Shown here in pieces: positions 1-50,653 of a stretch of 64,000 nucleotides of DNA. Position numbers and translations under genes: made by a program. This DNA is from Escherichia coli (GTDB taxonomy: Bacteria > Pseudomonadota > Gammaproteobacteria > Enterobacterales > Enterobacteriaceae), in NCBI RefSeq assembly GCF_022846255.1, contig NZ_AP025682.1. The stretch is one strand, 5' to 3'. Every line of letters starts with the position of its first letter. The first letter of the stretch is position 1. The notes beneath the pieces were generated by a model that did not search any database, had not been told where the DNA came from, and saw nothing but the letters and a program-made list of their open reading frames with translations.

Positions 1-1
1 C

Positions 2-882: not shown

Positions 883-2673
883 TTAAGTAAATAAAAACGC
901 CTCAACCTCTTTTAAAGTCTTTTCTAAAAAACGCAAAGATTCTCTGCAATCATCATCGCTCATTTGAGCTATTTTTTTTGCTAACGGGATCTTTCGTTTT
1001 TTGGGTATAAGATACTCAATCTTAATTGAGTAGTCTTTGTCTTTTAAATTATCAGAGAGTTTCATTTCTGATTGAATTAACTCATTAACTTTTTCTGGTG
1101 TAAGCATTTCATTTAAATTAGCTCTTCTTTCAAGATTATTTTCTTCTAACTCTTCTTTCCATATTGCAATAGGATAATTGGACTCTAAAACCCCTGGTAT
1201 TTTATAACCATCTTTTTTTGCACTGAGAACATCTTGCGTTGGTTTTAATGTAAAGCATTTAACTGATTTACCAATATCTTGAATATCACCAAGTTCTTTT
1301 TTGACATTTATACCATCTTTATCTGCATCTACAATGCCAACACATTTATATTTGTTTTGATGATGTTTATGGATATGATAATAAGCTTTTAACATGTCAC
1401 AAACATAGTTTGTTCCTGCGCCAAAATCTTTTGTAATTACCTCAATGTCATTCATCCTTTCTGGTATGAAAACTTGTATCGCCCTTTCAATTATAATTTT
1501 ATCGCTGGCTCCCTCTACGTACATTACAGCTTTTTCATCACCAAGTTTACCAACGGATTCAATATTTTCTATACGAGATTTCACCTCATCAATATAGGGT
1601 GAAAGCAATTCCATAACCCCCATTCTGTCATCAAGCAGTGCATATTTATCATCACAAGAGGTTACATCAGTCAAGTCTTTCTCAATAAAAATGCAATTAA
1701 CAGATCTATCTTGTTTTGAGAGATTATAAAATGCAGGAGAATGTGTAGTTATAAATAATTGTGATACAGGATCTGGCACGAAAGTTTTAAACTGTATGGC
1801 AAGCTTGATTGATGACGTTAACTCAAGGTTATTTTCTGGCTCTTCATAGCCCCATATAAATGTATACGGTGGGTTGCCTCTTGCCTGTAGTGTTTTTGTT
1901 TTCTCAGCAATATATTTTAATATTAATGGAATGTGGCGAGCTTTGATTCCATCACCTCGTTCATTAAGAGATATTTTCATTTCATTTAGAAAGTCTAAAT
2001 TCCCAAATAAATTACTTAGATCTCTAGGAAGCGAAAGTTCAGAGTTAAAACCAAGAGATTCGTTAATCTCTTTTGTTAACTCATGAAGATTCTCAGCTAT
2101 ACTCTTCTCAAATGCTTTGCTTGAATCGCTAAAATTCTCATTGAACACAGCATTTACAACAAAATATATTTCACTCCTTAATTTTGCAATATACCCTTTA
2201 TCCTTAATTGCAGGAATATAAACATATTTTACATTATTAAGTAACTGTCTTATATTTGAACGAGCTGGAATTTCTTGCTTTTCTGTTCGTCGACCGCCTC
2301 TAGGGCCACTATATGATTTAATCCCAAGTATACTCTCATCATAAAATCCACCTGAGCGCCATGACTTCGTCCATTCAATTAAATTTCCATTTGTTGCATG
2401 ATAACTAGATGGAATATCAAGAAGTAATTTAATTTTTATCTCTCTAGCTTTTTTAGAATATTTTTTTGCCGCATAAATATTATAGTCAGTTGAAAAATCA
2501 AAAGATTCTCCTGGATTTGTTTGCGAATTAAAGAAGAGGTTTAAAGCTCTTAATATATTTGATTTACCAGCATCATTATTACCAACAATAATCTGTAGTC
2601 GCGCACTATCAATAACTATTTTCTGAATTGATCGAAAATTCGTGATTTCAATTCTTCGAATACTAACCGGCAT
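883..2673 (-). CDS. OLD-family ABC-ATPase/Toprim nuclease (class-1 OLD-like, GajA-like or fused PARIS AriAB-like), ~596 aa
   Basis: N-terminal Walker A (IVGNNDAGKSNILRALNLFF), Walker B/D-loop-like FIWGYEEPENNLE and H-loop-like QLFITTHSPAF; C-terminal Toprim-like motifs (MYVEGASDKIIIE, GIVDADKDG). Start placed at the ATG at 2673 (M37 of the track ORF 883..2781), which has a GAGG Shine-Dalgarno ~8 nt upstream. GC about 30%, well below the core genome. Confidence 0.75.
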   Translation of the reverse strand: MPVSIRRIEITNFRSIQKIVIDSARLQIIVGNNDAGKSNILRALNLFFNSQTNPGESFDFSTDYNIYAAKKYSKKAREIKIKLLLDIPSSYHATNGNLIEWTKSWRSGGFYDESILGIKSYSGPRGGRRTEKQEIPARSNIRQLLNNVKYVYIPAIKDKGYIAKLRSEIYFVVNAVFNENFSDSSKAFEKSIAENLHELTKEINESLGFNSELSLPRDLSNLFGNLDFLNEMKISLNERGDGIKARHIPLILKYIAEKTKTLQARGNPPYTFIWGYEEPENNLELTSSIKLAIQFKTFVPDPVSQLFITTHSPAFYNLSKQDRSVNCIFIEKDLTDVTSCDDKYALLDDRMGVMELLSPYIDEVKSRIENIESVGKLGDEKAVMYVEGASDKIIIERAIQVFIPERMNDIEVITKDFGAGTNYVCDMLKAYYHIHKHHQNKYKCVGIVDADKDGINVKKELGDIQDIGKSVKCFTLKPTQDVLSAKKDGYKIPGVLESNYPIAIWKEELEENNLERRANLNEMLTPEKVNELIQSEMKLSDNLKDKDYSIKIEYLIPKKRKIPLAKKIAQMSDDDCRESLRFLEKTLKEVEAFLFT

Positions 2674-2807
2674 AAAAACCTCATCGTAACGCCTGTTTAT
2701 ATTTATAGCTGATAAAATAACACAACCACAATGAAAGTGAATAGTGAATTGCCACAAGTTTAACAAACACCTCAAGATCATTTAAAATGACTTAAAGAGA
2801 GGCTCCC

Positions 2808-3125
2808 ATGAGCAGTAAGCGTTAACTCGCAGAGTTTAAAATTAAAGCAGTCAAACAGATTGTTGAACATGGTTATTCTGTTTCCCTGCGTTGCAACACA
2901 TCTGTGTAAGTTCACTCTTTAGTGTACAAGCCATGAGCGTCAGTCGTTCCTGAAATAACACGACCATCGCGGTAACTGCCACTATAATGCGGTTACAGAA
3001 AGCTTTTTCCAGTTACTGAAGTCTGAACGGATAAAGAAAAAATCTTCAGCCCCCTGATCTCATCGTGTTATTCACAACAATCCACTCCTGAAATGGCCGT
3101 GAATACAATTTATCAAGGCTAGTGG
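2808..3125 (+). mobile_element. IS3-family transposase orfA remnant with multiple stops
   Basis: Translation MSSKR*LAEFKIKAVKQIVEHGYSVSLRCNTSV* resembles the HTH N-terminus of IS3-family OrfA proteins but is interrupted by stops; no ORF of 60 aa or more survives. Confidence 0.35.
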
Positions 3126-3257
3126 TCACTTTTCCTATTATGATTAGTGAAAACATAAAGTGCGGAAACGAATGAAAATGCACTGTATTATTTAAAGACA
3201 TCATCCAACGCCCTTACCGTGGTATACACTCAGGCACCAGATGCTGTTTTACAGGGT

Positions 3258-3989
3258 TCACCTGCCATCCAGAAGACGCCCCGGCCCACGACTGCAACCA
3301 TAATTACGTTGCCCGGAACCGTCATGCTGCTTCGTCTCATACTTCACGAGATAACTGGCTCTGTTCTGGGCTTTCTGCATCGCTTCCACATCACCACGCT
3401 TGATCCAGAGAACAGCGGCTTCACCCGGCTTTTTGTCTGAAGCCTTCCTGGTTTCAGAACATCCACCCGACAAAGGCGTATCATCGGAAGAAGGGCGAGC
3501 ATCAGATGATGTCGGTTTACGGAAAGGCGTCCGCCTGGAAAAATGAACCAGTCCATTACCCTGCCAGGGCTCAAGATGCAGAGCGCTACACCATGCCAGT
3601 TGTATCAGCGTCGCCAGCGAAGAAGGAACGGTGAAATCCCCTGGCGAGCACCAGGTATCTTTGTTGAGCAGTAATATCACGTGATAATGTTTCCTGCCTT
3701 TTTCCTTGCCAAACTCCCGACACCAGAAATAACGCAGAGTGGTTGCACGCACACGCTTGTTGGCACGTCGTTTATGTCGCTGGTAAGCCTGAATTTTTGC
3801 TTTCAGGGATGCAAAAAAACGAGAAATCACCGCTGAATCTAAATCGGTATCCATGATGGTGGCAGGCATATACTCAGGGAAACGTAAATCCACCCGGATT
3901 AACGAGACGGCACGGTGTTGCGCCAGGGCACTGTTGAGAATACTTTCAAAACGGGATAACCAGTAAGCATTGTGTATTGGTTGATTCAT
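3258..3989 (-). CDS. YagK/YfjJ-family (inovirus Gp2-like) prophage protein
   Basis: 243-aa ORF whose N-terminal half (MNQPIHNAYWLSRFESILNSALAQHRAVSLIRVDLRFPEYMP…RYFWCREFGKEKGRKHYHVILLLNKDTW…) resembles YagK/YfjJ proteins of CP4-type cryptic prophages; GGAG Shine-Dalgarno ~9 nt upstream of the ATG at 3989. The Arg/Ser/Gly-rich C-terminal tail may be read-through. Confidence 0.6.
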   Translation of the reverse strand: MNQPIHNAYWLSRFESILNSALAQHRAVSLIRVDLRFPEYMPATIMDTDLDSAVISRFFASLKAKIQAYQRHKRRANKRVRATTLRYFWCREFGKEKGRKHYHVILLLNKDTWCSPGDFTVPSSLATLIQLAWCSALHLEPWQGNGLVHFSRRTPFRKPTSSDARPSSDDTPLSGGCSETRKASDKKPGEAAVLWIKRGDVEAMQKAQNRASYLVKYETKQHDGSGQRNYGCSRGPGRLLDGR

Positions 3990-5503
3990 GATGAGAGATC
4001 TCCGTTGATTTGGATTGACTTCACATCATTAATCACCGCGGTAAAACTTTACGGCATCCGGCATTGAGCAATGCTACAACTCTCTGATTAAGAGTGATTG
4101 AAACGGAACAAACCATCCCGGAACGAAAAGATAATTCTACACGCAGGGTAAAAACACTCAAGAACAGCGAATGGATTTAAAAACGACATGGACAACGAGA
4201 AAAGTCAGAAGGGAAAAGGATCCACAGAACATTCGAACAAAACACCAGAAACGCAACCAGAACGCTTCCTGGTAATGCAAATCAACAACAACCCCAAAAC
4301 CTACAGCTTAATCACACAACTCAATCACGGATGCGAATGACACGTTTAAAACCTGTTTACAGATAAACCCCGCCACAAGAACAAAAATCACCAACATCAG
4401 AATCGATTTTCTCATCCTGAAAAAGTTACGTTTCACTACGCACCATAAAAACGATTAACCATCGATAACGTAAACCTTATCTGAATCAAAAACACCAAAA
4501 CCGTTCATCACACTTTCGCAATGCAAGAAGAAACCTCATGACAAAAAGAATGACCTTACACGGAAAAGAAAACGTCAGGAATCGTTAATGCCTCAATCTG
4601 ATTGTTATCAAAACATCCAGAAAGTCGTTTAACAGAATCGTCGTAAGCACATCGAAAAAAACGTCAGATTACTTCAGGAAAGTTCGGGTTGATTTAGCGT
4701 AAAGATACTTTTCTCATGCTAACGTCGAAACTCGAAATCTCAGGAAAGGTTAAACGTAACATCAGTAAAATCGAATAGCAGATTGATTGCTGAAGCAGAA
4801 AGGTTTTACAGCAGCATTAAACTGATTTAGTTAACGTAAAGATTTACTAAACTGGATGTGTATAGCAATGCTTAACGAAAACACTTGTAGAAGTGTTTAT
4901 GAAAATACGTGTATAAGACTTACTGAAATGCTTAGTAAAAATACTTAGTAAAATACGTGTATATAGTATCATACCGACATTAGCAACATTCTCAGACACT
5001 CATGCAGACTGAATGTTGATTACCCGTTTTCACATCAGGCATGGTTCTTTACTGACCAAAAAACAAACTGGTTTACTCTTGAATTATTTTCTCTACCTCA
5101 GAAAACATGGTCTCAGGAATCTGCTATGGTTTCATAGTTTCTGTTGTTCCTTTCATAAAAGTTATAAGTCATTGTCATAATCATACGATAATCACTTTAT
5201 GTTAGTTTTTACTGTCACACGCTACTGACTTTTTCAGTCATTGCCAGAAAGGGGCTCTTTTTACTTCCATTTCACCACTCAACAAATGCAAAACTTGTCC
5301 AGTAAAGCGGACCACCTCTTGCTCACAAGCAACGAATCATCTCCAGGAACAGCCCTCAAACATTGCAGAAACAAAAACAACAAAACCCTCATTATCACTG
5401 ATGTTCGGAAAATTTCCCGGAACAAAAAAAACGAAATCAAAATGAGACTCATTATCATGGATGTAGTCAAAAAGACGTTATGGTGGCTTTCAGTTAAATG
5501 GTA
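3990..5503. other. ORF-free, strongly A-rich / T-poor tract (+ strand) with short direct and inverted repeats
   Basis: No credible ORF of 60 aa or more in any frame over ~1.5 kb; extreme A-over-T skew on the + strand; imperfect tandem units around 4860-4975 (repeated aatacgtgtata and gcttaNNNaaaa motifs) and an inverted repeat aacacttgtagaagtgtt. Confidence 0.4.
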
Positions 5504-6634
5504 CTATTTCTCATAAATCCACTTAACTTTTTTTACTGATTCATCCCAGATAACCACTTTATCAGTAAAAAATGAATTATATAGATTGACGAGTTTTTCT
5601 GTTTCAGTTATTCCCAATGTATTATGTATCAGTTGTAGATATGCTTTTATCCAGATTTCTTTACCCTCCCTCCACTTATCTATAAAACTTTCCAGCTTAC
5701 TTAATCGTTGATTTATAAAAAACGAATCAATATCATGAAAAAGCTCAACAAGAAAACAGCACGAGACAATCTCAACAAAAAACAAATTCTCCTTAAAAGT
5801 ATTATAAAACCTTATCAACACATAACGAAAAACACCTCCTGTTAATCTTTCCTGTTCATAAAACAACAAACCAAAAACAGGAGGAAATCTTTTAACCACA
5901 CCACTTTTAATCCAGTAAGGATGATGATTAGTCTTTACTGGCAGTGAATAAAAGAACAATTCGGTTTCTCTTTTCCCACCACAAACAGACAAAACTGTCT
6001 TATAAAGACTTTTTGAATCATTATGTCCTGATACCCCAGACGAATTAGCAGAGTATTTTCTTTTTACTTTTTGCCTTAATGGAGCTGGAAGAATAATAAA
6101 ACGGGATGGCAGATAACAATCGCTTTCAGAAGACCGGCATTCGCACACATGAAGATTTATATTTACATCCGGACAATTCAAAAACCACACAGAATAATTA
6201 TCGCACCGTTTGCAATATGAAACCCATGAATAAATTGCATAAAGTTCAGAAAGCGCATCTAACTCTGCTTTTGAATTAAATGTGATACCGTTTCTTCGAA
6301 TTCTCGTTTCCAGCGTTCTCCATGCCGGGGTTTTCAGTATCTCACGAACTTTTTTATTAAGTTCAGCCAGAGATGGTCCCTGCTCCTGTTTATGTTTCGT
6401 CCTGCTGTTAATGATTTCTCTTTCTTTTACTAATTTCCTCTTTCTTTTTGGTCCTTCTACCTTTCTTGGCAATGCTTCATTTAATCTGTGAACAGGATTT
6501 TGCTCTCTTCTTTTTTTGAGCTCACAAAACCTCTCATAATGTTTTCTGCACAGTCTTTTCTCCACTGCCATTTTTACTGAGAAAACCTGATTGTTACAAT
6601 TTTTTCTGACACATTTGTTTTTACGTCCGGTCAT
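5504..6634 (-). CDS. Hypothetical protein, 376 aa, basic Cys-rich N-terminus (possible zinc-binding/nucleic-acid-binding); function unknown
   Basis: Long ORF at about 35% GC. N-terminus MTGRKNKCVRKNCNN…CRKHYERFCELKKRR and a second Cys cluster YCKRCDNYSVWFLNCPDVNINLHVCECRSSESDC. No family recognised by eye. Confidence 0.6.
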   Translation of the reverse strand: MTGRKNKCVRKNCNNQVFSVKMAVEKRLCRKHYERFCELKKRREQNPVHRLNEALPRKVEGPKRKRKLVKEREIINSRTKHKQEQGPSLAELNKKVREILKTPAWRTLETRIRRNGITFNSKAELDALSELYAIYSWVSYCKRCDNYSVWFLNCPDVNINLHVCECRSSESDCYLPSRFIILPAPLRQKVKRKYSANSSGVSGHNDSKSLYKTVLSVCGGKRETELFFYSLPVKTNHHPYWIKSGVVKRFPPVFGLLFYEQERLTGGVFRYVLIRFYNTFKENLFFVEIVSCCFLVELFHDIDSFFINQRLSKLESFIDKWREGKEIWIKAYLQLIHNTLGITETEKLVNLYNSFFTDKVVIWDESVKKVKWIYEK

Positions 6635-6818
6635 CCTCTCATCTCCTGAAACAGCAGTATGTCATTAGTTCCCGTTCTGAAAAACTGACGCCATACTCCA
6701 TTACACTTTAACAATAATGTCCGTAATTCAGACATTCCATCATTTTTCACGCCCATATTACCTGAATGATAAACCGGATTAGTGTGATCCGGTTCAGTGA
6801 AATCAACAGGATACCGGT

Positions 6819-7703
6819 ATGTCATTCAGCCATTCTTCCCTCTCCGCACAAGTGAAATCATATCTGACGTTTCTTCCTGAAGAAATTCGTCAGAAAATTC
6901 TTGAACATCTCCACAGCGTTATTCATTACGAACCCGTGATTGGCATTATGGGTAAATCCGGCACCGGCAAAAGTAGCCTGTGTAATGCTATTTTTCAGTC
7001 CCATATCTGTGCCACGCATCCCCTGAACGGCTGCACCCGCCAGGCTCATCGTCTTACCCTGCAGATCGGTGAACGCAGAATGACGCTGGTCGATCTGCCC
7101 GGCATTGGAGAGACGCCGCAACATGATCAGGAATACCGGGCGCTTTACCGTCAGTTACTGCCGGAAGTGGATTTGATTATCTGGATCCTGCGGGCAGATG
7201 AACGCGCATATGCCGCCGACATTACCATGCATCAGTTTTTACTGAATGAAGGCGCAGATCCCTCGCGTTTTCTGTTTGTTCTCAGCCATGCCGATCGCGT
7301 GTTTCCTGCTGAAGAATGGAATGCCACAGAAAAATGCCCGTCCCGTCAGCAGGCGCTCTCACTGGCGACGGTGACAGCCCGGGTGGCAACCCTGTTCCCT
7401 TCATCATTTCCGGTACTCTCCGTTGCTGCACCTGTCGGCTGGAACCTTCCGGCGTTTGTGTCGCTGATGATCCACGCACTGCCACCACAGGCAACCAGCG
7501 CGGTGTATTCACATATCCGGGGAGAAAACCGCTCTGAACAGGCCCAGAAACACGCACAACAGACTTTTGGTGAAACCATCGGGAAAAGTTTTGACGTCGC
7601 CGTTGCCCGTTTCAGTTTTCCGGCCTGGATGTTACAGCTTCTGCGTAAAGCCCGGGACCGCATTATCCACCTGCTGATCACACTGTGGGAGCGTCTGTTC
7701 TGA
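6819..7703 (+). CDS. YfjP/YkfA/YeeP-family GTPase (CP4-type prophage)
   Basis: P-loop GIMGKSGTGKSSLCNAIF and G3-like DLPGIGE motifs; 294 aa. Confidence 0.8.
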   Translation: MSFSHSSLSAQVKSYLTFLPEEIRQKILEHLHSVIHYEPVIGIMGKSGTGKSSLCNAIFQSHICATHPLNGCTRQAHRLTLQIGERRMTLVDLPGIGETPQHDQEYRALYRQLLPEVDLIIWILRADERAYAADITMHQFLLNEGADPSRFLFVLSHADRVFPAEEWNATEKCPSRQQALSLATVTARVATLFPSSFPVLSVAAPVGWNLPAFVSLMIHALPPQATSAVYSHIRGENRSEQAQKHAQQTFGETIGKSFDVAVARFSFPAWMLQLLRKARDRIIHLLITLWERLF

Positions 7704-7905
7704 CACACTCACGCCGACAGGATGTGTCGCTGGATTAACGAGCATTCTTCTTTTTATGAAATCATGCTTAAAAATCAGATAATTAAAAGAATATTTTTTC
7801 TGCTGCATTTTATTCCTGATTATCCGGATGCGACACATCCTTTCAACATCATGATGCATAATAACATCATGAAATAAAAGATGTTTTCTTACGGAGTGCA
7901 CATCT

Positions 7906-8586
7906 ATGTCTGATAATCGTTCCCGGCATGATCGCCTGGCGGTTCGCTTATCACTCATTATCAGCCGACTGATGGCCGGAGAATCTCTGTCACTAAAAAC
8001 ACTGTCAGATGAATTTGGCGTTACAGAACGTACTTTACAGCGCGATTTTCATCAGCGTCTGGTTCACCTGGATTTAGAGTACAGAAATGGCAGGTACAGC
8101 CTCAGACGACAGAGCAGCCCAGGTGCGATCCCTGAAATGCTTTCTTTTATACAGAATACCGGGATCGCACGGATACTTCCGCTCCGGAACGGACGACTGA
8201 TAACCTGTCTTACCGACAACCAGGAGCCCTCTCCCTGCCTTATCTGGCTACCGGCGCCGGATATCACTGCAACGTTCCCCGAGTGTTTCTCGCAACTCAT
8301 CCTGGCAATAAGACAGTGTATCCACATCTCTCTGATGACTGAGCGATGGTATCCGTCACTGGAGCCCTGCCGGCTCATTTATTACAGCGGTAGCTGGTAT
8401 CTGATCGCGTTACAGAAGGGAAAACTGCAGGTCTTTCCTCTGGCAGATATCAAATCAGTCAGCCTGACATCAGAACGGTTTGAACGGAGAGGCCACATCC
8501 ACAGTCTGGTCGCTGAAGAGCGTTTTATCTCCGCCCTGCCACATTTCTCTTTCATCCATAAACTTATCAACACCTTTAACCTGTGA
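7906..8586 (+). CDS. YfjR-like transcriptional regulator (HTH + WYL-like domain)
   Basis: 226-aa ORF with an N-terminal HTH-like segment (LKTLSDEFGVTERTLQRDFHQ); sits in the conserved position after the GTPase gene. Confidence 0.65.
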   Translation: MSDNRSRHDRLAVRLSLIISRLMAGESLSLKTLSDEFGVTERTLQRDFHQRLVHLDLEYRNGRYSLRRQSSPGAIPEMLSFIQNTGIARILPLRNGRLITCLTDNQEPSPCLIWLPAPDITATFPECFSQLILAIRQCIHISLMTERWYPSLEPCRLIYYSGSWYLIALQKGKLQVFPLADIKSVSLTSERFERRGHIHSLVAEERFISALPHFSFIHKLINTFNL

Positions 8587-8733
8587 TCGCCGGCCTGCCA
8601 AAGCCGTCCCGACAGGTATGGAGACAATATGTTGAACAGAAAACTAAATATACGGCTACGTCATTCCCTGAACAGTCACTGCATACCTTCCGTCATTATC
8701 AATAACACCGTACGTTCATTTCAGAGGTCAGTC

Positions 8734-9411
8734 ATGAATACCAGAGCTCTTTTTCCCCTGCTGTTCACTGTGGCATCATTCTCCGCCTCCGCCGGCAACT
8801 GGGCTGTCAAAAACGGCTGGTGTCAGACCATGACGGAAGATGGTCAGGCGCTGGTAATGCTGAAAAATGGCACGATTGGTATTACCGGCCTGATGCAGGG
8901 ATGCCCGAATGGCGTACAGACGCTCCTGGGCAGCCGTATCAGTATTAACGGTAACCTGATCCCCACATCACAAATGTGTAATCAGCAGACGGGATTCAGG
9001 GCTGTTGAGGTGGAAATCGGACAGGCGCCGGAAATGGTCAAAAAAGCCGTTCACTCCATAGCAGAGCGTGATGTGTCCGTTTTACAGGCATTTGGTGTAC
9101 GAATGGAATTCACCCGCGGTGATATGCTGAAGGTCTGTCCGAAATTTGTCACATCACTTGCCGGTTTTTCCCCGAAACAGACGACCACTATTAATAAAGA
9201 TTCCGTCCTGCAGGCTGCCCGGCAGGCATACGCCCGGGAATATGACGAGGAAACAACAGAAACCGCTGATTTTGGCTCTTACGAAGTAAAAGGCAATAAG
9301 GTTGAGTTTGAAGTATTCAATCCTGAAGACCGTGCGTACGACAAAGTGACCGTCACGGTTGGTGCTGACGGTAATGCCACCGGCGCCAGCGTTGAATTTA
9401 TCGGAAAATAG
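8734..9411 (+). CDS. Secreted/periplasmic hypothetical protein with signal peptide
   Basis: Start placed at M36 of the track [24 protein letters not shown], a signal-peptide-like N-terminus. Confidence 0.6.
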
Positions 9412-9416
9412 CCGGT

Positions 9417-9650
9417 ATGTCGGACTGCCACCCTGTTTTATTGCCCGAAGGCCCTTTCTCACGCGAACAGGCGGTTGCCGTCACAACAGCTTACCGCAAT
9501 GTGCTTATTGAAGATGACCAGGGAACGCATTTCCGGCTGGTTATCCGCAATGCCGAAGGGCAGCTACGCTGGCGGTGCTGGAATTTTGAACCTGATGCCG
9601 GAAAACAGCTAAATTCGTATCTCGCCAGTGAGGGAATTCTCAGGCAATAA
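9417..9650 (+). CDS. Small conserved prophage protein (DUF905-like)
   Basis: 77-aa ORF tightly packed between neighbours on the same strand. Confidence 0.5.
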
Positions 9651-9739
9651 ACGTCTTCATTTCATCCATCAGGCCGCGTCTTCTCCGGGAGACGCGGCCT
9701 TTTCGTTTATACCGCTAATTCATTCATAAGGAGCAAAGT

Positions 9740-10558
9740 ATGCAATTAGCCAGTCGTTTTGGTCATGTAAATCAGATCCGTCGGGAGCGCCCACTGACAC
9801 GCGAAGAACTGATGTACCACGTCCCGAGTATTTTTGGAGAAGACCGGCACACCTCCCGCAGTGAACGGTATGCGTACATTCCCACCATCACCGTCCTGGA
9901 AAATCTGCAGCGGGAAGGCTTTCAGCCGTTCTTCGCCTGCCAGACCCGTGTGCGCGACCAGAGCCGCCGGGAATATACCAAACATATGCTGCGTCTGCGG
10001 CGGGCCGGACAGATAACCGGTCAGCATGTGCCTGAAATTATTCTGCTCAACTCCCATGACGGTTCATCCAGCTACCAGATGTTACCCGGATATTTTCGTG
10101 CCATCTGCACCAATGGCTTGGTCTGCGGTCAGTCGCTGGGAGAAGTCCGGGTGCCCCACCGGGGAAACGTGGTGGACAGGGTGATTGAAGGTGCTTACGA
10201 AGTGGTGGGCGTGTTTGACCGGATTGAGGAAAAGCGTGATGCCATGCAGTCGCTGGTCCTGCCGCCACCGGCACGCCAGGCGCTGGCACAGGCGGCGCTG
10301 ACTTACCGTTATGGTGATGAACATCAGCCCGTCACCACTACCGACATTCTGACGCCACGACGCCGGGAGGATTACGGTAAGGACCTGTGGAGTGCTTATC
10401 AGACCATCCAGGAAAATATGCTGAAAGGCGGGATTTCCGGTCGCAGTGCCAGAGGAAAACGTATCCATACCCGGGCCATTCGCAGCATCGATACCGACAT
10501 TAAGCTCAACCGGGCGTTGTGGGTGATGGCAGAAACGCTGCTGGAGAGCATGCGCTGA
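9740..10558 (+). CDS. DUF932 family protein (YfjQ/YafZ-like)
   Basis: 272-aa ORF; MQLASRFGHVNQIRRERPLTREELMYHVPSIFGEDRHTSRSERYAYIPTITVLENLQREGFQPFFACQT… is typical of YafZ/YfjQ. Confidence 0.8.
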   Translation: MQLASRFGHVNQIRRERPLTREELMYHVPSIFGEDRHTSRSERYAYIPTITVLENLQREGFQPFFACQTRVRDQSRREYTKHMLRLRRAGQITGQHVPEIILLNSHDGSSSYQMLPGYFRAICTNGLVCGQSLGEVRVPHRGNVVDRVIEGAYEVVGVFDRIEEKRDAMQSLVLPPPARQALAQAALTYRYGDEHQPVTTTDILTPRRREDYGKDLWSAYQTIQENMLKGGISGRSARGKRIHTRAIRSIDTDIKLNRALWVMAETLLESMR

Positions 10559-10649
10559 TGCTGTTTCCCTGAAAGTGCAGCCCTGACTCACGTCTGTACC
10601 AGTCCCCAGGCATTCTTCCATTCATTTACTTTTTATAAGGAATCATCTC

Positions 10650-11135
10650 ATGACAACCTTTTCGCATAGCTCCACCACACCTTCTGTTTCCGTAACTACT
10701 GCATCAGGGAATAACCAGTCTCAACTGGTTGCCACTCCCGTCCCTGATGAACAGCGCATCAGCTTCTGGCCGCAGCACTTTGGCCTCATTCCACAGTGGG
10801 TGACCCTGGAGCCCCGTGTCTTCGGCTGGATGGACCGTCTGTGTGAAGACTACTGCGGGGGTATCTGGAATCTGTACACCCTGAACAACGGTGGCGCATT
10901 TATAGCACCTGAACCGGATGAAGATGATGGAGAAACCTGGATACTGTTCAATGCCATGAACGGTAACCGCGCTGAAATGAGCCCGGAAGCTGCCGGCATT
11001 GCCGCCTGTCTGATGGCGTACAGCCATCATGCCTGTCGTACGGAGTGTTATGCCATGACGGTCCACTATTACCGGCTGCGGGATTACGCCCTGCAACATC
11101 CGGAATGCAGCGCCATTATGCGCATCATTGACTGA
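10650..11135 (+). CDS. Antirestriction protein (ArdB/KlcA-like; YfjX/YeeS-neighbour family)
   Basis: 161-aa ORF with the conserved …WPQHFGLIPQWVTLEPRVFGWMDRLCEDYCGGIWNLYTLNNGGAFIAPE… pattern. Confidence 0.8.
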   Translation: MTTFSHSSTTPSVSVTTASGNNQSQLVATPVPDEQRISFWPQHFGLIPQWVTLEPRVFGWMDRLCEDYCGGIWNLYTLNNGGAFIAPEPDEDDGETWILFNAMNGNRAEMSPEAAGIAACLMAYSHHACRTECYAMTVHYYRLRDYALQHPECSAIMRIID

Positions 11136-11149
11136 AAGGGGCCGGAACA

Positions 11150-11626
11150 ATGCAACAGATTTCCTTTCTGCCCGGAGAAATGACGCCCGGTGAGCGCAGC
11201 CTCATTCAGCGGGCCCTGAAAACCCTGGACCGCCATCTTCATGAACCCGGCGTGGCCTTCACCTCCACGCATGCGGCACGGGAATGGCTGATTCTGAACA
11301 TGGCGGGACTGGAGCGTGAAGAATTCCGGGTGCTGTATCTGAACAACCAGAATCAGCTGATTGCCGGTGAAACCCTCTTCACCGGCACCATCAACCGCAC
11401 GGAAGTCCATCCCCGGGAAGTGATTAAACGCGCCCTGTATCACAATGCCGCTGCCGTGGTGCTGGCACACAATCACCCGTCCGGTGAAGTCACACCCAGT
11501 AAGGCAGACCGGCTTATCACCGAACGTCTGGTACAGGCACTGGCCCTGGTGGATATCCGGGTGCCGGACCATCTGATAGTCGGTGGCAACCAGGTTTTCT
11601 CCTTTGCGGAACACGGTCTGCTTTAA
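11150..11626 (+). CDS. RadC-like JAB-domain protein (YeeS/YfjY/YkfG family)
   Basis: JAMM motif HNHPSGEVTPSKAD in a 158-aa ORF. Confidence 0.85.
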   Translation: MQQISFLPGEMTPGERSLIQRALKTLDRHLHEPGVAFTSTHAAREWLILNMAGLEREEFRVLYLNNQNQLIAGETLFTGTINRTEVHPREVIKRALYHNAAAVVLAHNHPSGEVTPSKADRLITERLVQALALVDIRVPDHLIVGGNQVFSFAEHGLL

Positions 11627-11688
11627 CCCGTCACAACTACATCACACTTGTTTTCACTTTTATCTTCTGTCTTCAGAGGTATCCCATC

Positions 11689-11910
11689 ATGAAAATTATC
11701 ACCCGTGGTGAAGCCATGCGTATTCACCAACAGCATCCTGCATCCCGTCTTTTTCCGTTCTGTACCGGTAAGTACCGCTGGCACGGCAGCGCTGAAGCGT
11801 ATACCGGTCGTGAAGTGCAGGATATTCCCGGCGTTCTTGCCGTGTTTGCTGAACGCCGTAAGGACAGTTTTGGCCCGTATGTCCGGCTGATGAGCGTCAC
11901 TCTGAACTGA
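11689..11910 (+). CDS. DUF987 protein (YeeT-like)
   Basis: 73-aa ORF MKIITRGEAMRIHQQHPASRLFPFCTGKYRWHGSAEAYTGREVQDIPGVLAVFAERRKDSFGPYVRLMSVTLN. Confidence 0.75.
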   Translation: MKIITRGEAMRIHQQHPASRLFPFCTGKYRWHGSAEAYTGREVQDIPGVLAVFAERRKDSFGPYVRLMSVTLN

Positions 11911-11989
11911 GTCAGGAAGGGCATTCAGAAGAGCAGAATTATCGCCACCACCGGACCATTCTTAACCAATTTTCTGTGAGGATTTTATT

Positions 11990-12358
11990 GTGTCAGACAC
12001 ATTCTCCGGGACAACGCATCCCGATGACAATCACGACCGCCCCTGGTGGGGGCTGCCCTGTACCGTGACACCTTGTTTTGGCGCCCGTCTGGTGCAGGAG
12101 GGTAACCGGTTGCATTACCTTGCCGACCGCGCCGATATCAGAGGCCGGTTCAGCGACGCGGATGCGTACCATCTGGACCAGGCCTTTCCGCTGCTGATGA
12201 AACAACTGGAGCTCATGCTCACCAGCGGTGAACTGAATCCCCGCCATCAGCATACCGTCACGCTGTATGCAAAAGGGCTGACCTGCGAAGCCGACACCCT
12301 CGGCAGTTGTGGCTACGTTTATATGGCTGTTTATCCGACGCCCGAAACGAAAAAGTAA
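11990..12358 (+). CDS. Type IV antitoxin of the CbeA/YeeU family
   Basis: 122-aa ORF immediately upstream of a CbtA-like gene; …WGLPCTVTPCFGARLVQEGNRLHYLADRA… matches the YeeU/CbeA pattern. Confidence 0.85.
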   Translation: MSDTFSGTTHPDDNHDRPWWGLPCTVTPCFGARLVQEGNRLHYLADRADIRGRFSDADAYHLDQAFPLLMKQLELMLTSGELNPRHQHTVTLYAKGLTCEADTLGSCGYVYMAVYPTPETKK

Positions 12359-12447
12359 ACCACCGGAATAATCGTCTGTTCCGGCCTGGTGCTTTCACCA
12401 CGCCACTTTTCCATTTTTCATCTCTGCATATCAGGAAAATCTTCAGT

Positions 12448-12825
12448 ATGAAAACATTACCTGTATTACCCGGGCAGGCGGCCAGTTCACGCCCGTCTCC
12501 GGTTGAAATCTGGCAGACACTGCTCACCCGACTGCTGGACCAGCATTACGGCCTTACGCTGAATGACACACCGTTCGCTGATGAACGTGTGATTGAGCAG
12601 CATATTGAGACAGGCATTTCACTGTGCGATGCGGTGAACTTTCTCGTTGAAAAATACACACTGGTACGTACCGACCAGCCAGGATTCAGCGCCTGTACCC
12701 GTTCTCAGTTAATAAACAGTATTGATATCCTCCGGGCCCGCCGGGCAACCGGCCTGATGGCCCGCGACAATTACAGAACGGTAAATAACATTACCCTGGG
12801 TAAACATCCGGGGGCGAAACAATGA
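12448..12825 (+). CDS. Type IV toxin of the CbtA/YeeV family
   Basis: Start at M48 of the track ORF; MKTLPVLPGQAASSRPSPVEIWQTLLTRLLDQHYGLTLNDTPFADERVIEQHIETGISLCDAVNFLVEKYTLVRTDQPGF…. Confidence 0.85.
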   Translation: MKTLPVLPGQAASSRPSPVEIWQTLLTRLLDQHYGLTLNDTPFADERVIEQHIETGISLCDAVNFLVEKYTLVRTDQPGFSACTRSQLINSIDILRARRATGLMARDNYRTVNNITLGKHPGAKQ

Positions 12826-13310
12826 AACTGGCCCTGACGCTGGAAGCCGACAGCATTAACGTGCAGGCACTGAACATGGGGCGCATTGTCGTTGACGTCG
12901 ATGGTGTTACTCTCGCTTAACTGATTAACGTGGTCTGCGATAACGGTTACTCCCTTCGTGTTGTTGATGAATCTGACCGGACATCAGCAGAGCGCACGCC
13001 ACCATCTGCGGCCCTTACCGGCATACGCTGCAGTACCGCGCATATCACGGCAAAGGACAACGCCTGGCTGTACTCGCTGTCACATCAGACGAATGGCACC
13101 GGCGAATCAGAATGGATTCATTTTACAGGTAGCGGATATCTGTTACGTACCGGTGCGTGGTCGTACCCGGTTCTGCGGCTTAAACGCCTGGGGCTGTCCA
13201 GAACGTTCCGCCGTCTGGTTGTCACACTCATCCGGCGTTATGGCGTCAGTCTCATTCATCTGGATGCCAGTGCCGGATGTCTGCCGGGTTTACCCACTTT
13301 CGACTGGTAA
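12822..13310 (+). pseudogene. YeeW-like prophage gene interrupted by an in-frame TAA
   Basis: ATG at 12822 overlaps the cbtA-like stop (ATGA). Frame 0 reads MKLALTLEADSINVQALNMGRIVVDVDGVTLA, then TAA at 12918-12920, then continues in the same frame (LINVVCDNGYSLRVVDESDR… to the stop at 13308-13310). Confidence 0.5.
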
Positions 13311-13326
13311 TCCGGAAATTCACAAC

Positions 13327-13524
13327 ATGAAATCATTAACCACGGAAACCGCACTGGATATTCTGATTGCGTGGCTGCAGGACAATATCGACTGCGAATC
13401 GGGAATTATCTTTGACAACGATGAGGATAGAACGGATTCGGCAGCACTGTTGCCCTGTATCGAACAGGCCAGGGAGGATATCCGTATCCTGCGCCAGTTG
13501 CAGCTTCTGCAACAGAACCGGTGA
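13327..13524 (+). CDS. Small hypothetical prophage protein (65 aa)
   Basis: ATG-initiated ORF MKSLTTETALDILIAWLQDNIDCESGIIFDNDEDRTDSAALLPCIEQAREDIRILRQLQLLQQNR; corresponds to the C-terminal part of the track ORF 12958..13524. Confidence 0.45.
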   Translation: MKSLTTETALDILIAWLQDNIDCESGIIFDNDEDRTDSAALLPCIEQAREDIRILRQLQLLQQNR

Positions 13525-13608
13525 GTCTTACTCACCAGACTTCATTCCACTGACGCCAGCCTGAACAGGGCTGGCGTTTTCATTTATCTGCAAAAAGGAA
13601 TATCGATT

Positions 13609-14451
13609 ATGTCTGAAATCACAGCCCCCCGTCCGGAAGTGGTCAACGGGCATACGGACGTTATCTGCTCAACCAGTATCCGCCACATTCTGGCTGTACG
13701 AAAGAGTACGCTGCTGCAAATCGACACACTTACCCGGCAACTGGCTGAAATCTCAGCAATGACAGAAAGCATTGGCGGTAAAACCGCACTGGACTGGGCG
13801 ATGAAACAGGATTTTCGCTGCGGCTGCTGGCTCATGGAGAAAACTGAAACGGCAATGAAAGCCATCACCCGAAACCTTGACCGTGAAATCTGGCGTGACC
13901 TGATGCAACGCTCCGGGATGCTGTCATTAATGGATGCGCAGACCCGTGATACATGGTACCGGTCACTGGAGTACAATAATTTTCCGGAAATCAGTGAAGC
14001 GAACATTCTGAGCACATTTGAACAACTGCACCAGAATAAGGATGAGGTGTTTGAGCGAGGGGTGATCAACGTCTTCAGGGGACTGAGCTGGGATTACAAA
14101 ACCAACTCACCCTGTAAATTTGGCAGTAAAATTATCGTCAACAACCTGGTGAGGTGGGACCGGTGGGGGTTTCATCTTATCACCGGGCAACAGACTGACC
14201 GACTCGTCGACCTGGAAAGAATGCTACATCTGTTCAGCGGCAAACCGATCCCCGACAACCGGGAAAACATCACTATTCGTCTGGATGGTCACATCCAGTC
14301 CGTTCAGGGTAAAGAGCGCTATGAAGACGAGATGTTCATCATTAAATACTTTAAGAAGGGATCTGCACACATCACTTTCAAAAGGCTGGAACTGATTGAC
14401 AGAATTAACGATATAATAGCCAGGTACTTTCCTTCTGTGCTCTCAGCCTGA
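13609..14451 (+). CDS. DUF4942-family protein (terminal gene of CP4-like elements)
   Basis: 280-aa ORF at the island end, just inside the tRNA-derived repeat. Confidence 0.7.
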   Translation: MSEITAPRPEVVNGHTDVICSTSIRHILAVRKSTLLQIDTLTRQLAEISAMTESIGGKTALDWAMKQDFRCGCWLMEKTETAMKAITRNLDREIWRDLMQRSGMLSLMDAQTRDTWYRSLEYNNFPEISEANILSTFEQLHQNKDEVFERGVINVFRGLSWDYKTNSPCKFGSKIIVNNLVRWDRWGFHLITGQQTDRLVDLERMLHLFSGKPIPDNRENITIRLDGHIQSVQGKERYEDEMFIIKYFKKGSAHITFKRLELIDRINDIIARYFPSVLSA

Positions 14452-14561
14452 TCCCGAGTGTGATTCCCTTTCGATATCAAAAGGGACTGCGGGTATAATT
14501 GAGGGTACATTTTTAATCAAACCAAACAAATTGTATTAATATCAATATGATAAAAGAAATT

Positions 14562-14583
14562 TTCGATTCCGAGTCCGGCACCA
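14562..14583 (+). repeat. tRNA-Phe (pheU) 3'-end copy; island attachment-site direct repeat (right boundary)
   Basis: ttcgattccgagtccggcacca matches the 3' end of E. coli tRNA-Phe (TTCGATTCCGAGTCCGGGCACCA, recalled) with one G missing; the upstream sequence does not continue the tRNA. Confidence 0.7.
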
Positions 14584-14592
14584 AATTCATAT

Positions 14593-14622
14593 AAACGGAC
14601 CTCCACGGAGGTCCGTTTTTCG
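14593..14622 (+). terminator. Rho-independent terminator-like hairpin downstream of the tRNA-derived repeat
   Basis: ggacctcc-ac-ggaggtcc stem followed by gttttt. Confidence 0.6.
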
Positions 14623-15199
14623 TTTCAGGACGCCACGATTTAAGCGTCCTGCCGCCAAATCAATTCTACCGAACTCAACCAGATTCTCCCCACATCACCA
14701 GCAATTTACGGGCATATTCCAATTCGGGAAAATTTGTTTCTGAGCTATAGCGCTGACTGACGTGAAATGTCGTGCGGCCCCGTGATGCTGTTGAACGTCA
14801 AATGACGTCATCAGGAGCGTAACGCACCCATAAAGCACAACATCGGGCAGAACGCCAACTGATGAGATTTTCTGAATAAGAACAAAGAGAAATGTATCAG
14901 TCCGTTTGCTCATGCAAAGACTAACAATCCATTAAAATAGTAAGCGCTCCGGACAATTTTTCATGGATTATTTTCTGAACATTTTTCTTTGGCAAAGATG
15001 ATGAATTTTGATGGTAAGGAAAATTACTTCTGGTTCTCAGTAAAATCCTTTCGTAATACTATGTAATCAAGAAGTTTATGGCGGGTAAAAATAACGTCCT
15101 ACATTCACCAATAATATGTAAATAAACCCATCTATAGATGGAAAAAATAGGTTATGGCAATTATCATTGCATCATTCCCTTTTCGAATGAGTTTCTATT

Positions 15200-16738
15200 A
15201 TGCAACAACCTGTAGTTCGCGTTGGCGAATGGCTTGTTACTCCGTCCATAAACCAAATTAGCCGCAATGGGCGTCAACTTACCCTTGAGCCGAGATTAAT
15301 CGATCTTCTGGTTTTCTTTGCTCAACACAGTGGCGAAGTACTTAGCAGGGATGAACTTATCGATAATGTCTGGAAGAGAAGTATTGTCACCAATCACGTT
15401 GTGACGCAGAGTATCTCAGAACTACGTAAGTCATTAAAAGATAATGATGAAGATAGTCCTGTCTATATCGCTACTGTACCAAAGCGCGGCTATAAATTAA
15501 TGGTGCCGGTTATCTGGTACAGCGAAGAAGAGGGAGAGGAAATAATGCTATCTTCGCCTCCCCCTATACCAGAGGCGGTTCCTGCCACAGATTCTCCCTC
15601 CCACAGTCTTAACATTCAAAACACCACAACGCCACCTGAACAATCCCCAGTTAAAAGCAAACGATTCACTACCTTTTGGGTATGGTTTTTTTTCCTGTTG
15701 TCGTTAGGTATCTGTGTCGCACTGGTAGCGTTTTCAAGTCTTGAAACACGTCTTCCTATGAGTAAATCGCGCATTTTGCTCAATCCACGCGATATTGACA
15801 TTAATATGGTTAATAAGAGTTGTAACAGCTGGAGTTCTCCGTATCAGCTCTCTTACGCGATAGGCGTGGGTGATTTGGTGGCGACATCACTTAACACCTT
15901 CTCCACCTTTATGGTGCATGACAAAATCAACTACAACATTGATGAACCGAGCAGTTCCGGTAAAACATTATCTATTGCGTTTGTTAATCAGCGCCAATAC
16001 CGTGCTCAACAATGCTTTATGTCGGTAAAATTGGTAGACAATGCAGATGGTTCAACCATGCTGGATAAACGTTATGTCATCACTAACGGTAATCAGCTGG
16101 CGATTCAAAATGATTTGCTCCAGAGTTTATCAAAAGCGTTAAACCAACCGTGGCCACAACGAATGCAGGAGATGCTCCAGCAAATTTTGCCGCATCGTGG
16201 TGCGTTATTAACTAATTTTTATCAGGCACATGATTATTTACTGCATGGTGATGATAAATCATTGGATCGTGCCAGTGAATTATTAGGTGAGATTGTTCAA
16301 TCATCCCCAGAATTTACCTACGCGAGAGCAGAAAAAGCATTAGTTGATATCGTGCGCCATTCTCAACATCCTTTAGACGAAAAACAATTAGCAGCACTGA
16401 ACACAGAAATAGATAACATTGTTACACTACCGGAATTGAACAACTTGTCCATTATATATCAAATAAAAGCGGTCAGTGCCCTGGTAAAAGGTAAAACAGA
16501 TGAGTCTTATCAGGCGATAAATACTGGCATTGATCTTGAAATGTCCTGGCTAAATTATGTGTTGCTTGGCAAGGTTTATGAAATGAAGGGGATGAACCGG
16601 GAAGCAGCTGATGCATATCTCACCGCCTTTAATTTACGCCCAGGGGCAAACACCCTTTACTGGATTGAAAATGGTATATTCCAGACTTCTGTTCCTTATG
16701 TTGTACCTTATCTCGACAAATTTCTCGCTTCAGAATAA
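15200..16738 (+). CDS. cadC: CadC, membrane-integrated ToxR-like activator of the cadBA operon
   Basis: 512 aa; N-terminal winged-helix segment (MQQPVVRVGEWLVTPSINQISRNGRQLTLEPRLIDLLVFFAQHSGEVLSRDELIDNVW), transmembrane segment and periplasmic sensor; upstream of cadBA. Confidence 0.95.
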   Translation: MQQPVVRVGEWLVTPSINQISRNGRQLTLEPRLIDLLVFFAQHSGEVLSRDELIDNVWKRSIVTNHVVTQSISELRKSLKDNDEDSPVYIATVPKRGYKLMVPVIWYSEEEGEEIMLSSPPPIPEAVPATDSPSHSLNIQNTTTPPEQSPVKSKRFTTFWVWFFFLLSLGICVALVAFSSLETRLPMSKSRILLNPRDIDINMVNKSCNSWSSPYQLSYAIGVGDLVATSLNTFSTFMVHDKINYNIDEPSSSGKTLSIAFVNQRQYRAQQCFMSVKLVDNADGSTMLDKRYVITNGNQLAIQNDLLQSLSKALNQPWPQRMQEMLQQILPHRGALLTNFYQAHDYLLHGDDKSLDRASELLGEIVQSSPEFTYARAEKALVDIVRHSQHPLDEKQLAALNTEIDNIVTLPELNNLSIIYQIKAVSALVKGKTDESYQAINTGIDLEMSWLNYVLLGKVYEMKGMNREAADAYLTAFNLRPGANTLYWIENGIFQTSVPYVVPYLDKFLASE

Positions 16739-17103
16739 GTAACTCCCGGGTTGATTCATGCTCGGGAATATTTGTTGTTGAGTTTTTGTATGTTCCCGTT
16801 GGTATAATATGTTGCGGCAATTTATTTGCCGCATAATTTTTATTACATAAATTTAACCAGAAGATGTCACATAACACATTGTAAATATTGAATGTTTATC
16901 TTTTCATGATATCAACTTGCGATCCTGATGTGTTAATAAAAAACCTCAAGTTCTCACTTACAGAAACTTTTGTGTTATTTCACCTAATCTTTAGGATTAA
17001 TCCTTTTTTCGTGAGTAATCTTAGCGCCAGTTTGGTCTGGTCAGGAAATAGTTATACATCATGACCCGGACTCCAAATTCAAAAATGAAATTAGGAGAAG
17101 AGC
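16739..17103 (+). promoter_or_regulatory. cadBA promoter region (Pcad) with CadC-binding sites expected
   Basis: AT-rich intergenic region between cadC and cadB; position assigned from established knowledge of Pcad, individual sites not resolved. Confidence 0.5.
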
Positions 17104-18438
17104 ATGAGTTCTGCCAAGAAGATCGGGCTATTTGCCTGTACCGGTGTTGTTGCCGGTAATATGATGGGGAGCGGTATTGCATTATTACCTGCGAACCTAG
17201 CAAGTATCGGTGGTATTGCTATCTGGGGTTGGATTATCTCTATTATTGGTGCAATGTCGCTGGCATATGTATATGCCCGACTGGCAACAAAAAACCCGCA
17301 ACAAGGTGGCCCAATTGCGTATGCCGGAGAAATTTCTCCTGCATTTGGTTTTCAGACAGGTGTTCTTTATTACCATGCTAACTGGATTGGTAACCTGGCA
17401 ATTGGTATTACCGCTGTATCTTATCTTTCCACCTTCTTCCCAGTATTAAATGATCCTGTTCCGGCGGGTATCGCCTGTATTGCTATCGTCTGGGTATTTA
17501 CCTTTGTAAATATGCTCGGCGGTACCTGGGTAAGCCGTTTAACCACTATTGGTCTGGTGCTGGTTCTTATTCCTGTGGTGATGACTGCTATTGTTGGCTG
17601 GCATTGGTTTGATGCAGCAACTTATGCAGCTAACTGGAATACTGCGGATACCACTGATGGTCATGCGATCATTAAAAGTATTCTGCTCTGCCTGTGGGCC
17701 TTCGTGGGTGTTGAATCCGCAGCAGTAAGTACTGGTATGGTTAAAAACCCGAAACGTACCGTTCCGCTGGCAACCATGCTGGGTACTGGTTTAGCAGGTA
17801 TTGTTTACATCGCTGCGACTCAGGTGCTTTCCGGTATGTATCCGTCTTCTGTAATGGCGGCTTCCGGTGCTCCATTTGCAATCAGTGCTTCAACTATCCT
17901 CGGTAACTGGGCTGCGCCGCTGGTTTCTGCATTCACCGCCTTTGCGTGCCTGACTTCTCTGGGCTCCTGGATGATGTTGGTAGGCCAGGCAGGTGTACGT
18001 GCCGCTAACGACGGTAACTTCCCGAAAGTTTATGGTGAAGTCGACAGCAACGGTATTCCGAAAAAAGGTCTGCTGCTGGCTGCAGTGAAAATGACTGCCC
18101 TGATGATCCTCATCACTCTGATGAACTCTGCCGGTGGTAAAGCATCTGACCTGTTCGGTGAACTGACCGGTATCGCAGTACTGCTGACTATGCTGCCGTA
18201 CTTCTACTCTTGCGTTGACCTGATTCGTTTTGAAGGCGTTAACATCCGCAACTTTGTCAGCCTGATCTGCTCTGTACTGGGTTGCGTGTTCTGCTTCATC
18301 GCGCTGATGGGCGCAAGCTCCTTCGAGCTGGCAGGTACCTTCATCGTCAGCCTGATTATCCTGATGTTCTACGCTCGCAAAATGCACGAGCGCCAGAGCC
18401 ACTCAATGGATAACCACACAGCGTCTAACGCACATTAA
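17104..18438 (+). CDS. cadB: Lysine/cadaverine antiporter
   Basis: 444-aa polytopic membrane protein of the APC family, directly upstream of cadA. Confidence 0.95.
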   Translation: MSSAKKIGLFACTGVVAGNMMGSGIALLPANLASIGGIAIWGWIISIIGAMSLAYVYARLATKNPQQGGPIAYAGEISPAFGFQTGVLYYHANWIGNLAIGITAVSYLSTFFPVLNDPVPAGIACIAIVWVFTFVNMLGGTWVSRLTTIGLVLVLIPVVMTAIVGWHWFDAATYAANWNTADTTDGHAIIKSILLCLWAFVGVESAAVSTGMVKNPKRTVPLATMLGTGLAGIVYIAATQVLSGMYPSSVMAASGAPFAISASTILGNWAAPLVSAFTAFACLTSLGSWMMLVGQAGVRAANDGNFPKVYGEVDSNGIPKKGLLLAAVKMTALMILITLMNSAGGKASDLFGELTGIAVLLTMLPYFYSCVDLIRFEGVNIRNFVSLICSVLGCVFCFIALMGASSFELAGTFIVSLIILMFYARKMHERQSHSMDNHTASNAH

Positions 18439-18517
18439 TTAAAAGTATTTTCCGAGGCTCCTCCTTTCATTTTGTCCCATGTGTTGGGAGGGGCCTTTTT
18501 TACCTGGAGATATGACT

Positions 18518-50629: not shown

Positions 50630-50653
50630 CATCCCCATCATTGAGGAAAACGA

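Follow-up and report, generated by a model that had tools for sequence, protein, structure and literature searches.

The closest described relatives of the locus considered here are elements of Escherichia coli K-12 and genomic islands of pathogenic strains. In CP4-44, the genes for a RadC-like protein, DUF987, the antitoxin CbeA, the toxin CbtA and DUF5983 follow one another; the GTPase gene of this element, yeeP, is a pseudogene, after which come the gene for antigen 43 (Ag43, flu) and yeeR. CP4-57 (yfjP to ypjF), integrated at ssrA, and CP4-6 (ykfA to ykfI), integrated at thrW, carry genes for a GTPase, DUF932, a regulator, DUF905, ArdB, RadC, DUF987, an antitoxin and a toxin. Islands at pheU, pheV and selC are known from extraintestinal pathogenic E. 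coli (ExPEC) strains such as MSHS 133, IAI39, 536, KP63 and H22, and PAI II of CFT073 is the source of the ArdB protein that has been studied. We analysed a stretch of 64,000 nucleotides of E. coli DNA (contig NZ_AP025682.1; hereafter the window, to which module coordinates refer), in which genes of all these families occupy positions 6819-14451 of the plus strand. Very probably, this segment is a conserved accessory module that forms the integrase-distal part of a genomic island, one inserted at the 3' end of the tRNA-Phe gene pheU.

The region had been called a CP4-57/CP4-44-type module in an earlier reading of the sequence (the original prediction). At the level of protein families this stands. 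In order and completeness, however, the module follows the islands of pathogenic strains and not K-12, since in CP4-57 and CP4-6, unlike the window, DUF932 comes straight after the GTPase; ypjK, yfjS and yfjT are additional genes of the K-12 elements. The ExPEC islands show the same order of 13 genes over 7.6 kb, with 95-96% DNA identity, and those of MSHS 133 and H22 have in addition an att remnant and a cadC flank in common with the window. CP4-44 has the same order as the window from RadC to DUF5983, and the segment from RadC to CbtA is the only part of the window that is close to K-12 (90-99% amino acid identity to CP4-44): YeeS is 98.7%, YeeT 98.6%, CbeA 90% and CbtA 94% identical to the window proteins, and a short YeeW fragment 62%. 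A tblastn search of CP4-44 detected no regulator, secreted protein, DUF905, DUF932, ArdB or DUF4942, and only short partial matches to DUF5983 and DUF957; the window copy is far more complete. CP4-57 and CP4-6, which are inserted at other sites than the pheU island of the window, reach only 32-82% identity to it, and tblastn detected no DUF5983, DUF957 or DUF4942 in them.

The right-hand end of the pheU island

The placement of the module at 6819-14451 was exact: its first ATG lies at 6819 and its last stop codon at 14451. Between them are 13 co-oriented genes on the plus strand, and the reading frames of 12 of the 13 are intact. A gap of 110 bp separates the end of the module from the distal att core (14562-14583, plus strand), a 22-bp remnant of the 3' end of tRNA-Phe, TTCGATTCCGAGTCCGGCACCA, which corresponds to the last 23 bp of the gene minus one G. 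The pheU terminator hairpin follows 3' of the att core, at 14593-14618. In the alignment, homology to K-12 begins exactly at the att remnant and extends over the pheU terminator and the integrase relic yjdQ into cadC; the junction between island and backbone is placed at 14561/14562. Because the sequence from the att remnant onward is collinear with pheU-yjdQ'-cadC of K-12, the module is located at the integrase-distal end of a pheU island. That the element is integrated at a tRNA gene, as had been proposed, is thus supported by K-12 homology that starts at the last 23 bp of pheU.

No tRNA gene is present in the window. In related islands, the integrase gene adjoins tRNA-Phe; the tRNA gene and the integrase gene of this island would lie to the left of the window, outside it, and the island runs off its left edge. 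On the other side, the backbone 3' of the island carries cadC, cadB and cadA (15200-20665) and is 99.7% identical to that of E. coli H22 over 9.5 kb (cadCBA-dtpC-lysS). A source other than E. coli was considered, since the module reaches only 95-96% identity, and was rejected in view of the identity of this backbone to H22.

The pheU islands of MSHS 133 (locus L001, 16763-16784) and H22 (locus L002, 20111-20132), whose interiors differ, have exactly the same one-G deletion in the att core and the same sequences flanking it. An old, fixed, vertically inherited junction is suggested for the right end, and renewal by homologous recombination for the interior of the island. Between the att remnant and cadC lies a fragment of a P4-type integrase gene, at about 14781-14940 (L001 16982-17141; yjdQ in K-12). 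As it is also present, as the pseudogene yjdQ, in K-12, which is free of the island, this fragment is left over from an element that occupied the pheU site earlier.

Gene content, synteny and mosaic structure

Families were assigned with Pfam, at E-values from 1e-15 to 1e-66, so that chance matches are not an issue. Every family named by the original prediction that could be tested in this way was found again, and the proteins are not unrelated to those families. The module opens with a YfjP/YeeP-like GTPase of 294 aa (6819-7703; MMR_HSR1, 2.6e-15), 99.7% identical to a protein of the KP63 selC island and 32-36% identical to YfjP, YkfA and YeeP of K-12. The second gene (7906-8586) encodes a YfjR-like transcriptional regulator of 226 aa, with Pfam HTH_11 and WYL domains (PADLOC WYL, 2.6e-18) and 43% identity to YfjR. 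It is followed by the gene for an orphan protein of 225 aa (8734-9411, with the start given by PGAP), which has a signal-peptide-like N-terminus that, read by eye, looks like a Sec signal peptide. This orphan has no match in Pfam, NCBIfam, PHROGs or PDB; only 60 clusters of homologues were found, those named by organism belong to the Enterobacteriaceae, and every source name is "hypothetical protein". Next come a YkfF-like DUF905 protein of 77 aa (9417-9650; Pfam, 1e-31; PDB 2HJJ, which is YkfF, 1.7e-28), a YfjQ/YafZ-like DUF932 protein of 272 aa (9740-10558; Pfam, 1.8e-49; 74% identical to YfjQ and YafZ), an anti-restriction protein of the ArdB/KlcA family of 161 aa (10650-11135; PF03230, 5.9e-36, 123 bits), a YeeS-like JAB/JAMM protein related to RadC, of 158 aa (11150-11626; Pfam RadC, 2.8e-45; PDB 2QLC, 1.2e-25), and a YeeT-like DUF987 protein of 73 aa (11689-11910; Pfam, 5.4e-40).

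The type IV toxin-antitoxin genes come after these. The antitoxin gene cbeA (yeeU) encodes 122 aa (11990-12358; CbeA_antitoxin, 9.2e-55) and has a GTG start, as in K-12. The toxin gene cbtA (yeeV) encodes 125 aa (12448-12825; CbtA_toxin, 1.8e-57); its start had been put at a TTG at 12307, which is incorrect, the true start being the ATG at 12448. The start of the YeeW-like DUF5983 gene (12822-13310; Pfam match to the C-terminal domain, 2.6e-21) overlaps the cbtA stop codon (ATGA). This gene contains an in-frame TAA at 12918-12920 (codon 33), which is absent from both intact copies compared, those of MSHS 133 and H22. Since the MSHS 133 homologue has Glu at this position, the DUF5983 gene of the window is a pseudogene or an N-terminally truncated gene. 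A small protein of 65 aa (13327-13524), without a Pfam or NCBIfam match in the window copy, was named DUF957 from the PGAP annotation of syntenic islands, its gene being 89-92% identical to those of the loci L001 and L003. The last gene of the island (13609-14451) encodes a DUF4942 protein of 280 aa (Pfam, 3.3e-66), which in some relatives is fused to an S-adenosylmethionine (SAM) methyltransferase and whose fold has no match among solved structures. The list of 12 genes drawn up earlier was right in its families; it omitted DUF957 (13327-13524) and overlooked the in-frame TAA of DUF5983. NCBIfam yielded generic matches for the GTPase and RadC, and none for the other module proteins tested.

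All 13 genes are under purifying selection: dN/dS lies between 0.07 and 0.39 for each of them in every pairwise comparison, which identifies the module as constrained coding sequence and not decaying DNA. Long terminator-like hairpins occur at 9671-9700, after DUF905, and at 13552-13578, after DUF957, and a third is found after the att core; these three hairpins suggest about four predicted transcription units. A promoter scan returned 12 sites versus 12.5 expected in shuffled sequence; given this lack of enrichment no promoters are claimed. A permissive Rfam scan of positions 1-16000 found nothing, including no small RNA like IsrC.

The module is an already known and very common kind, as the original prediction had held in calling it stereotyped and not novel, and that interpretation is supported with minor corrections. 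Indeed, PGAP annotation shows the same gene order at pheU in MSHS 133, at selC in KP63, in strains 536 and IAI39, and in the record CP057032; the H22 pheU island matches it from DUF905 onward. Related DNA was detected by megablast in 5037 of 5426 complete E. coli genomes (~93%), with a median of 3 and a maximum of 18 places per genome, and at least 80% of the module is present in 1815 of the 5426. No full-length match above ~96% was found in this collection. A sliding comparison showed that positions 1-9600 are ~99.8% identical to the KP63 selC island and positions 7600-11200 ~99.8% identical to the MSHS 133 pheU island; positions 11600-14400 are only 89-95% identical to the loci of KP63 and MSHS 133, and their best match in the 5426 genomes is 96%. 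Set against the ExPEC islands, the window thus resembles KP63 in its left half and MSHS 133 in its centre, and its right third has no close match. This pattern points, less firmly than the conclusions above, to a mosaic that arose by recombination between paralogous modules.

In the H22 pheU island (L002 10803-14893) and in CP4-44 of K-12 (locus L005, 7540-10659), a gene for an Ag43/Cah autotransporter separates the GTPase gene from the rest of the module. In the window, the same place is occupied by the genes for the WYL regulator and the orphan secreted protein. Because Ag43 replaces these two genes in H22 and CP4-44, the module has an internal variable slot besides the one on its left.

The CbeA/CbtA pair, ArdB and the RadC-like protein

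CbtA matches PF06755 over the full length of the profile with 192.6 bits (cut-off 25; E-value 1.8e-57). CbeA matches PF06154 with 183.9 bits, and the PDB entries 2H28 and 2INW (YeeU) at ~1e-76, which corresponds to the YeeU fold. The gene cbeA stands directly upstream of cbtA on the same strand, and the spacer is 89 bp long versus 88 bp in K-12. Compared with K-12 CbtA, the toxin has seven substitutions and one extra residue at the C-terminus; R15 and F65 are kept. By analogy with the K-12 proteins, the case for regarding the two genes as a toxin-antitoxin pair is strong. K-12 CbeA is said, in work of Masuda from 2012, to counteract the toxin by bundling FtsZ and MreB polymers, and the CbeA of the window would likewise counteract CbtA on the target side. 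In published experiments, the mutation F65S killed the interaction of CbtA with FtsZ and R15C the interaction with MreB, only the double mutant being non-toxic (PMC5624674). The claim that toxins of the CbtA family target FtsZ and MreB is supported, for the protein of the window, through these results on K-12 CbtA, to which it is 94% identical and with which it shares both critical residues. It would thus be expected to bind FtsZ and MreB, with the effect that division and elongation are blocked. In K-12, the antitoxins neutralise and cross-neutralise the toxins, autoregulation is seen for neither partner, and what triggers the toxins is not known (PMC5371832). In the island, the CbeA/CbtA pair would penalise loss of the element.

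ArdB has the KlcA/ArdB fold, as judged from its matches to PDB 2WJ9 (2.3e-95), which we take to be the crystal structure of CFT073 ArdB, and to KlcA (2KMG, 1.8e-20). The ArdB protein of CFT073, as well as YafX and YfjX, inhibits type I restriction in vivo (PMC2836571), and its homologue in the window would be expected to do the same. In the RadC-like protein, the JAMM motif HNHPSGEVTPSKAD is intact in the translation. The K-12 RadC paralogue YfjY (LfgB) is reported to be a protease that cleaves MqsA (PMC10846083); by analogy, the RadC-like protein would be a JAMM metalloprotease.

Mobility, neighbouring cargo and the role of the module

The presence of an anti-restriction gene had been taken to imply that the element was once transmissible. 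Several comparisons are consistent with this. CP057032, a circular record of 62 kb in the plasmid collection, carries the whole module at 92.5% identity, and in it an intact 23-bp att core (locus L008, 19755-19777) comes after DUF4942 and before a tyrosine integrase gene. No replicon or mobility type is assigned to this record, and no rep or tra gene is found among its annotated genes that were examined. Because the integrase side of this junction normally abuts tRNA-Phe in chromosomes, and because a contiguous DUF4942-att-integrase junction is found in the chromosome in only 2 of the 5426 genomes, CP057032 looks like an excised attP circle. In conjugative IncFIB/HI1B megaplasmids of Klebsiella, the block that begins with the WYL regulator and ends with DUF957 keeps the gene order, apart from some additional small genes, at ~69% DNA identity; it lacks the GTPase and DUF4942, both of which are present in the window. 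Thousands of plasmids, mostly conjugative, match the DUF932 gene only; in an IncFIA example, the DUF932 homologue lies between psiB/hok and traM, that is, in the leading region. No relaxase or mating-pair gene was found among the genes examined in 1-14561, most of the island being outside the window. The CP057032 record, the Klebsiella plasmids and the IncF copies of DUF932 thus form consistent but circumstantial sequence evidence that the element was transmissible in the past.

The expectation of a variable cargo slot directly to the left of the module is supported by the data: the GC content drops from ~51% to 34-38% left of ~6800, and positions 1-6818 are present at a coverage of at least 80% in only 16 genomes versus 1815 for the module. 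In KP63, one of the 16, this segment sits in the selC island. At the start of the window is an IS481 pseudogene. A gene on the minus strand (883-2781) encodes an OLD/AriA/GajA-like ATP-dependent nuclease (open reading frame of 632 aa, 596 aa from the PGAP start) with an AAA_15 N-terminus, whose best PADLOC matches are AriA, GajA and Old. This OLD-family nuclease is solitary. Since it adjoins the IS481 pseudogene and no partner gene is visible, it may belong to a defence system truncated by the insertion sequence. A YagK/YfjJ "inovirus Gp2" protein is encoded at 3258-3989 on the minus strand. A further minus-strand gene of low GC content, at 5504-6634, is head-to-head with the GTPase gene; it encodes a protein of 376 aa that has a Cys-rich N-terminus and no Pfam or PADLOC match. 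As the KP63 selC island and CP057032 also have it next to this variant of the GTPase gene, it may be part of the module and not of the variable cargo.

An AT-rich segment of 1.5 kb (3990-5503), in which no open reading frame exceeds 55 aa, separates the Gp2/YfjJ-like gene from the 376-aa gene. It contains short direct repeats: AAAATACGTGTATA occurs twice, TTA[GA]CGTAAAGAT also twice, and a family of repeats is spaced by 24 nt at 4871-4963. A repeat-bearing core of 381 bp (4660-5040) is present at a coverage of at least 80% in 913 of the 5426 genomes, always in the chromosome and without annotation in all rows listed; the cargo on its flanks is much rarer (16 versus 913 genomes). The core could be an origin-like site, either an origin of transfer (oriT) or a rolling-circle origin, and is a candidate target of the Rep-like Gp2 protein. 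Elsewhere in the window, a block of 58-62% GC at 49841-60653 is ordinary backbone, namely the phnC-phnP phosphonate operon, with yjdM and crfC on its left and alsR and alsB on its right. A second island, considered for the high-GC region at 50-61 kb, was rejected for this reason.

In plasmids, anti-defence genes are concentrated in the leading regions, where anti-restriction genes are typical (PMC11541004). Many genomic islands are reported to carry only an oriT, with anti-restriction genes common among them (preprint 10.64898/2026.01.13.699239); mention of the present module was not found in that preprint. By analogy, the module would serve the island as the leading region serves a plasmid, and as a whole it would help the island to survive entry into a new host and then to persist there. 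A more specific version of this idea is that the module is the leading region of a chromosomal island of the "iOriT" type, an establishment and anti-defence cassette expressed early after mobilisation by a helper. On this view, factors of anti-defence or establishment that have so far gone unrecognised would be found among DUF932, DUF905, DUF987, DUF5983, DUF957, DUF4942 and the orphan secreted protein; DUF4942 would be DNA-directed, and the segment 4660-5040 could be the cis-acting origin. We consider this proposal tentatively, as a possible but rather doubtful one. The window differs from plasmid leading regions in having no oriT (in a search for the F type), ssb or psiB next to the module.

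Several observations weigh against the main reading, that of a conserved accessory module with a part in the survival and persistence of the island. DUF5983 is interrupted. The K-12 antitoxins can be deleted and the K-12 operon is weakly expressed (PMC5371832), so that an addiction role is unproven. The att core is one base short, and because this deletion is common to the pheU islands of other strains, it points to vertical inheritance with internal recombination and not to recent mobility. The CP057032 circle could be an assembly artefact of tandem islands, given that two genomes carry the corresponding junction in the chromosome. Finally, the integrase gene, the tRNA gene and any oriT would be outside the window, and neither similarity to an IncF oriT nor the F nic core was found in positions 1-14600.

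Some of the same data could be read in other ways. One is that the main role of the module, or of the toxin-antitoxin pair with the WYL regulator, is in abortive infection against phages, and not in maintenance or transfer of the island. The module does adjoin the OLD/AriA/GajA-like nuclease of the cargo (883-2781), which resembles defence proteins; the PADLOC WYL profile that the regulator matches bears the label of Cas-associated signalling; and the cargo of CP4-57 in K-12 includes anti-phage genes, those annotated abpAB and rnlAB. Other defence systems, too, are under the control of WYL regulators. However, no PADLOC model fits the module proteins that were scanned, except the generic WYL profile and a weak LeoBC match on the GTPase (cbeA, cbtA, ardB and radC were not scanned), ArdB is an anti-defence and not a defence protein, and a search of the literature found no published anti-phage phenotype of CbtA/CbeA. 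We regard an anti-phage role as unlikely.

It is quite improbable, too, that the module is an inert relic, that is, decaying DNA from an old integration that is passively carried. The nonsense codon in DUF5983, the shortened att core with its deletion common across strains, the truncated and insertion sequence-interrupted copies of K-12, and the weak transcription of the K-12 toxin-antitoxin operons (PMC5371832) would all be understandable in a relic. A relic would not be expected to keep 12 of 13 frames intact with dN/dS values of 0.07-0.39 throughout, nor an intact JAMM motif and the R15 and F65 residues of CbtA, nor would related DNA be kept in 5037 of 5426 genomes at a median of 3 copies. 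A third reading makes the region a piece of a defective prophage; it is implied by the annotation of the K-12 elements as cryptic prophages, and matches of several module proteins to PHROG families (all of unknown function) might suggest it. It is scarcely credible and was rejected: a distant blastn search against 50,697 phage records recovered the module only as one unannotated fragment of 3.2 kb, the genes examined in the syntenic islands and in the island portion of the window included none for phage structure, lysis or packaging, and the homologues are instead on conjugative plasmids.

A conserved accessory module at the integrase-distal end of a pheU island is thus the reading that we retain. 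That the right-hand boundary of the island is fixed to the base and its type identified is useful for annotation of the window and brings no new biology. What remains of value, beyond this exact boundary and the mosaic of this copy, is a set of seven conserved uncharacterised proteins whose module has links to the leading regions of plasmids. This module is one of the accessory blocks that recur most often in E. coli, yet 7 of its 13 proteins are without known function, and in view of those links a search for anti-defence or establishment factors could reasonably be made there.

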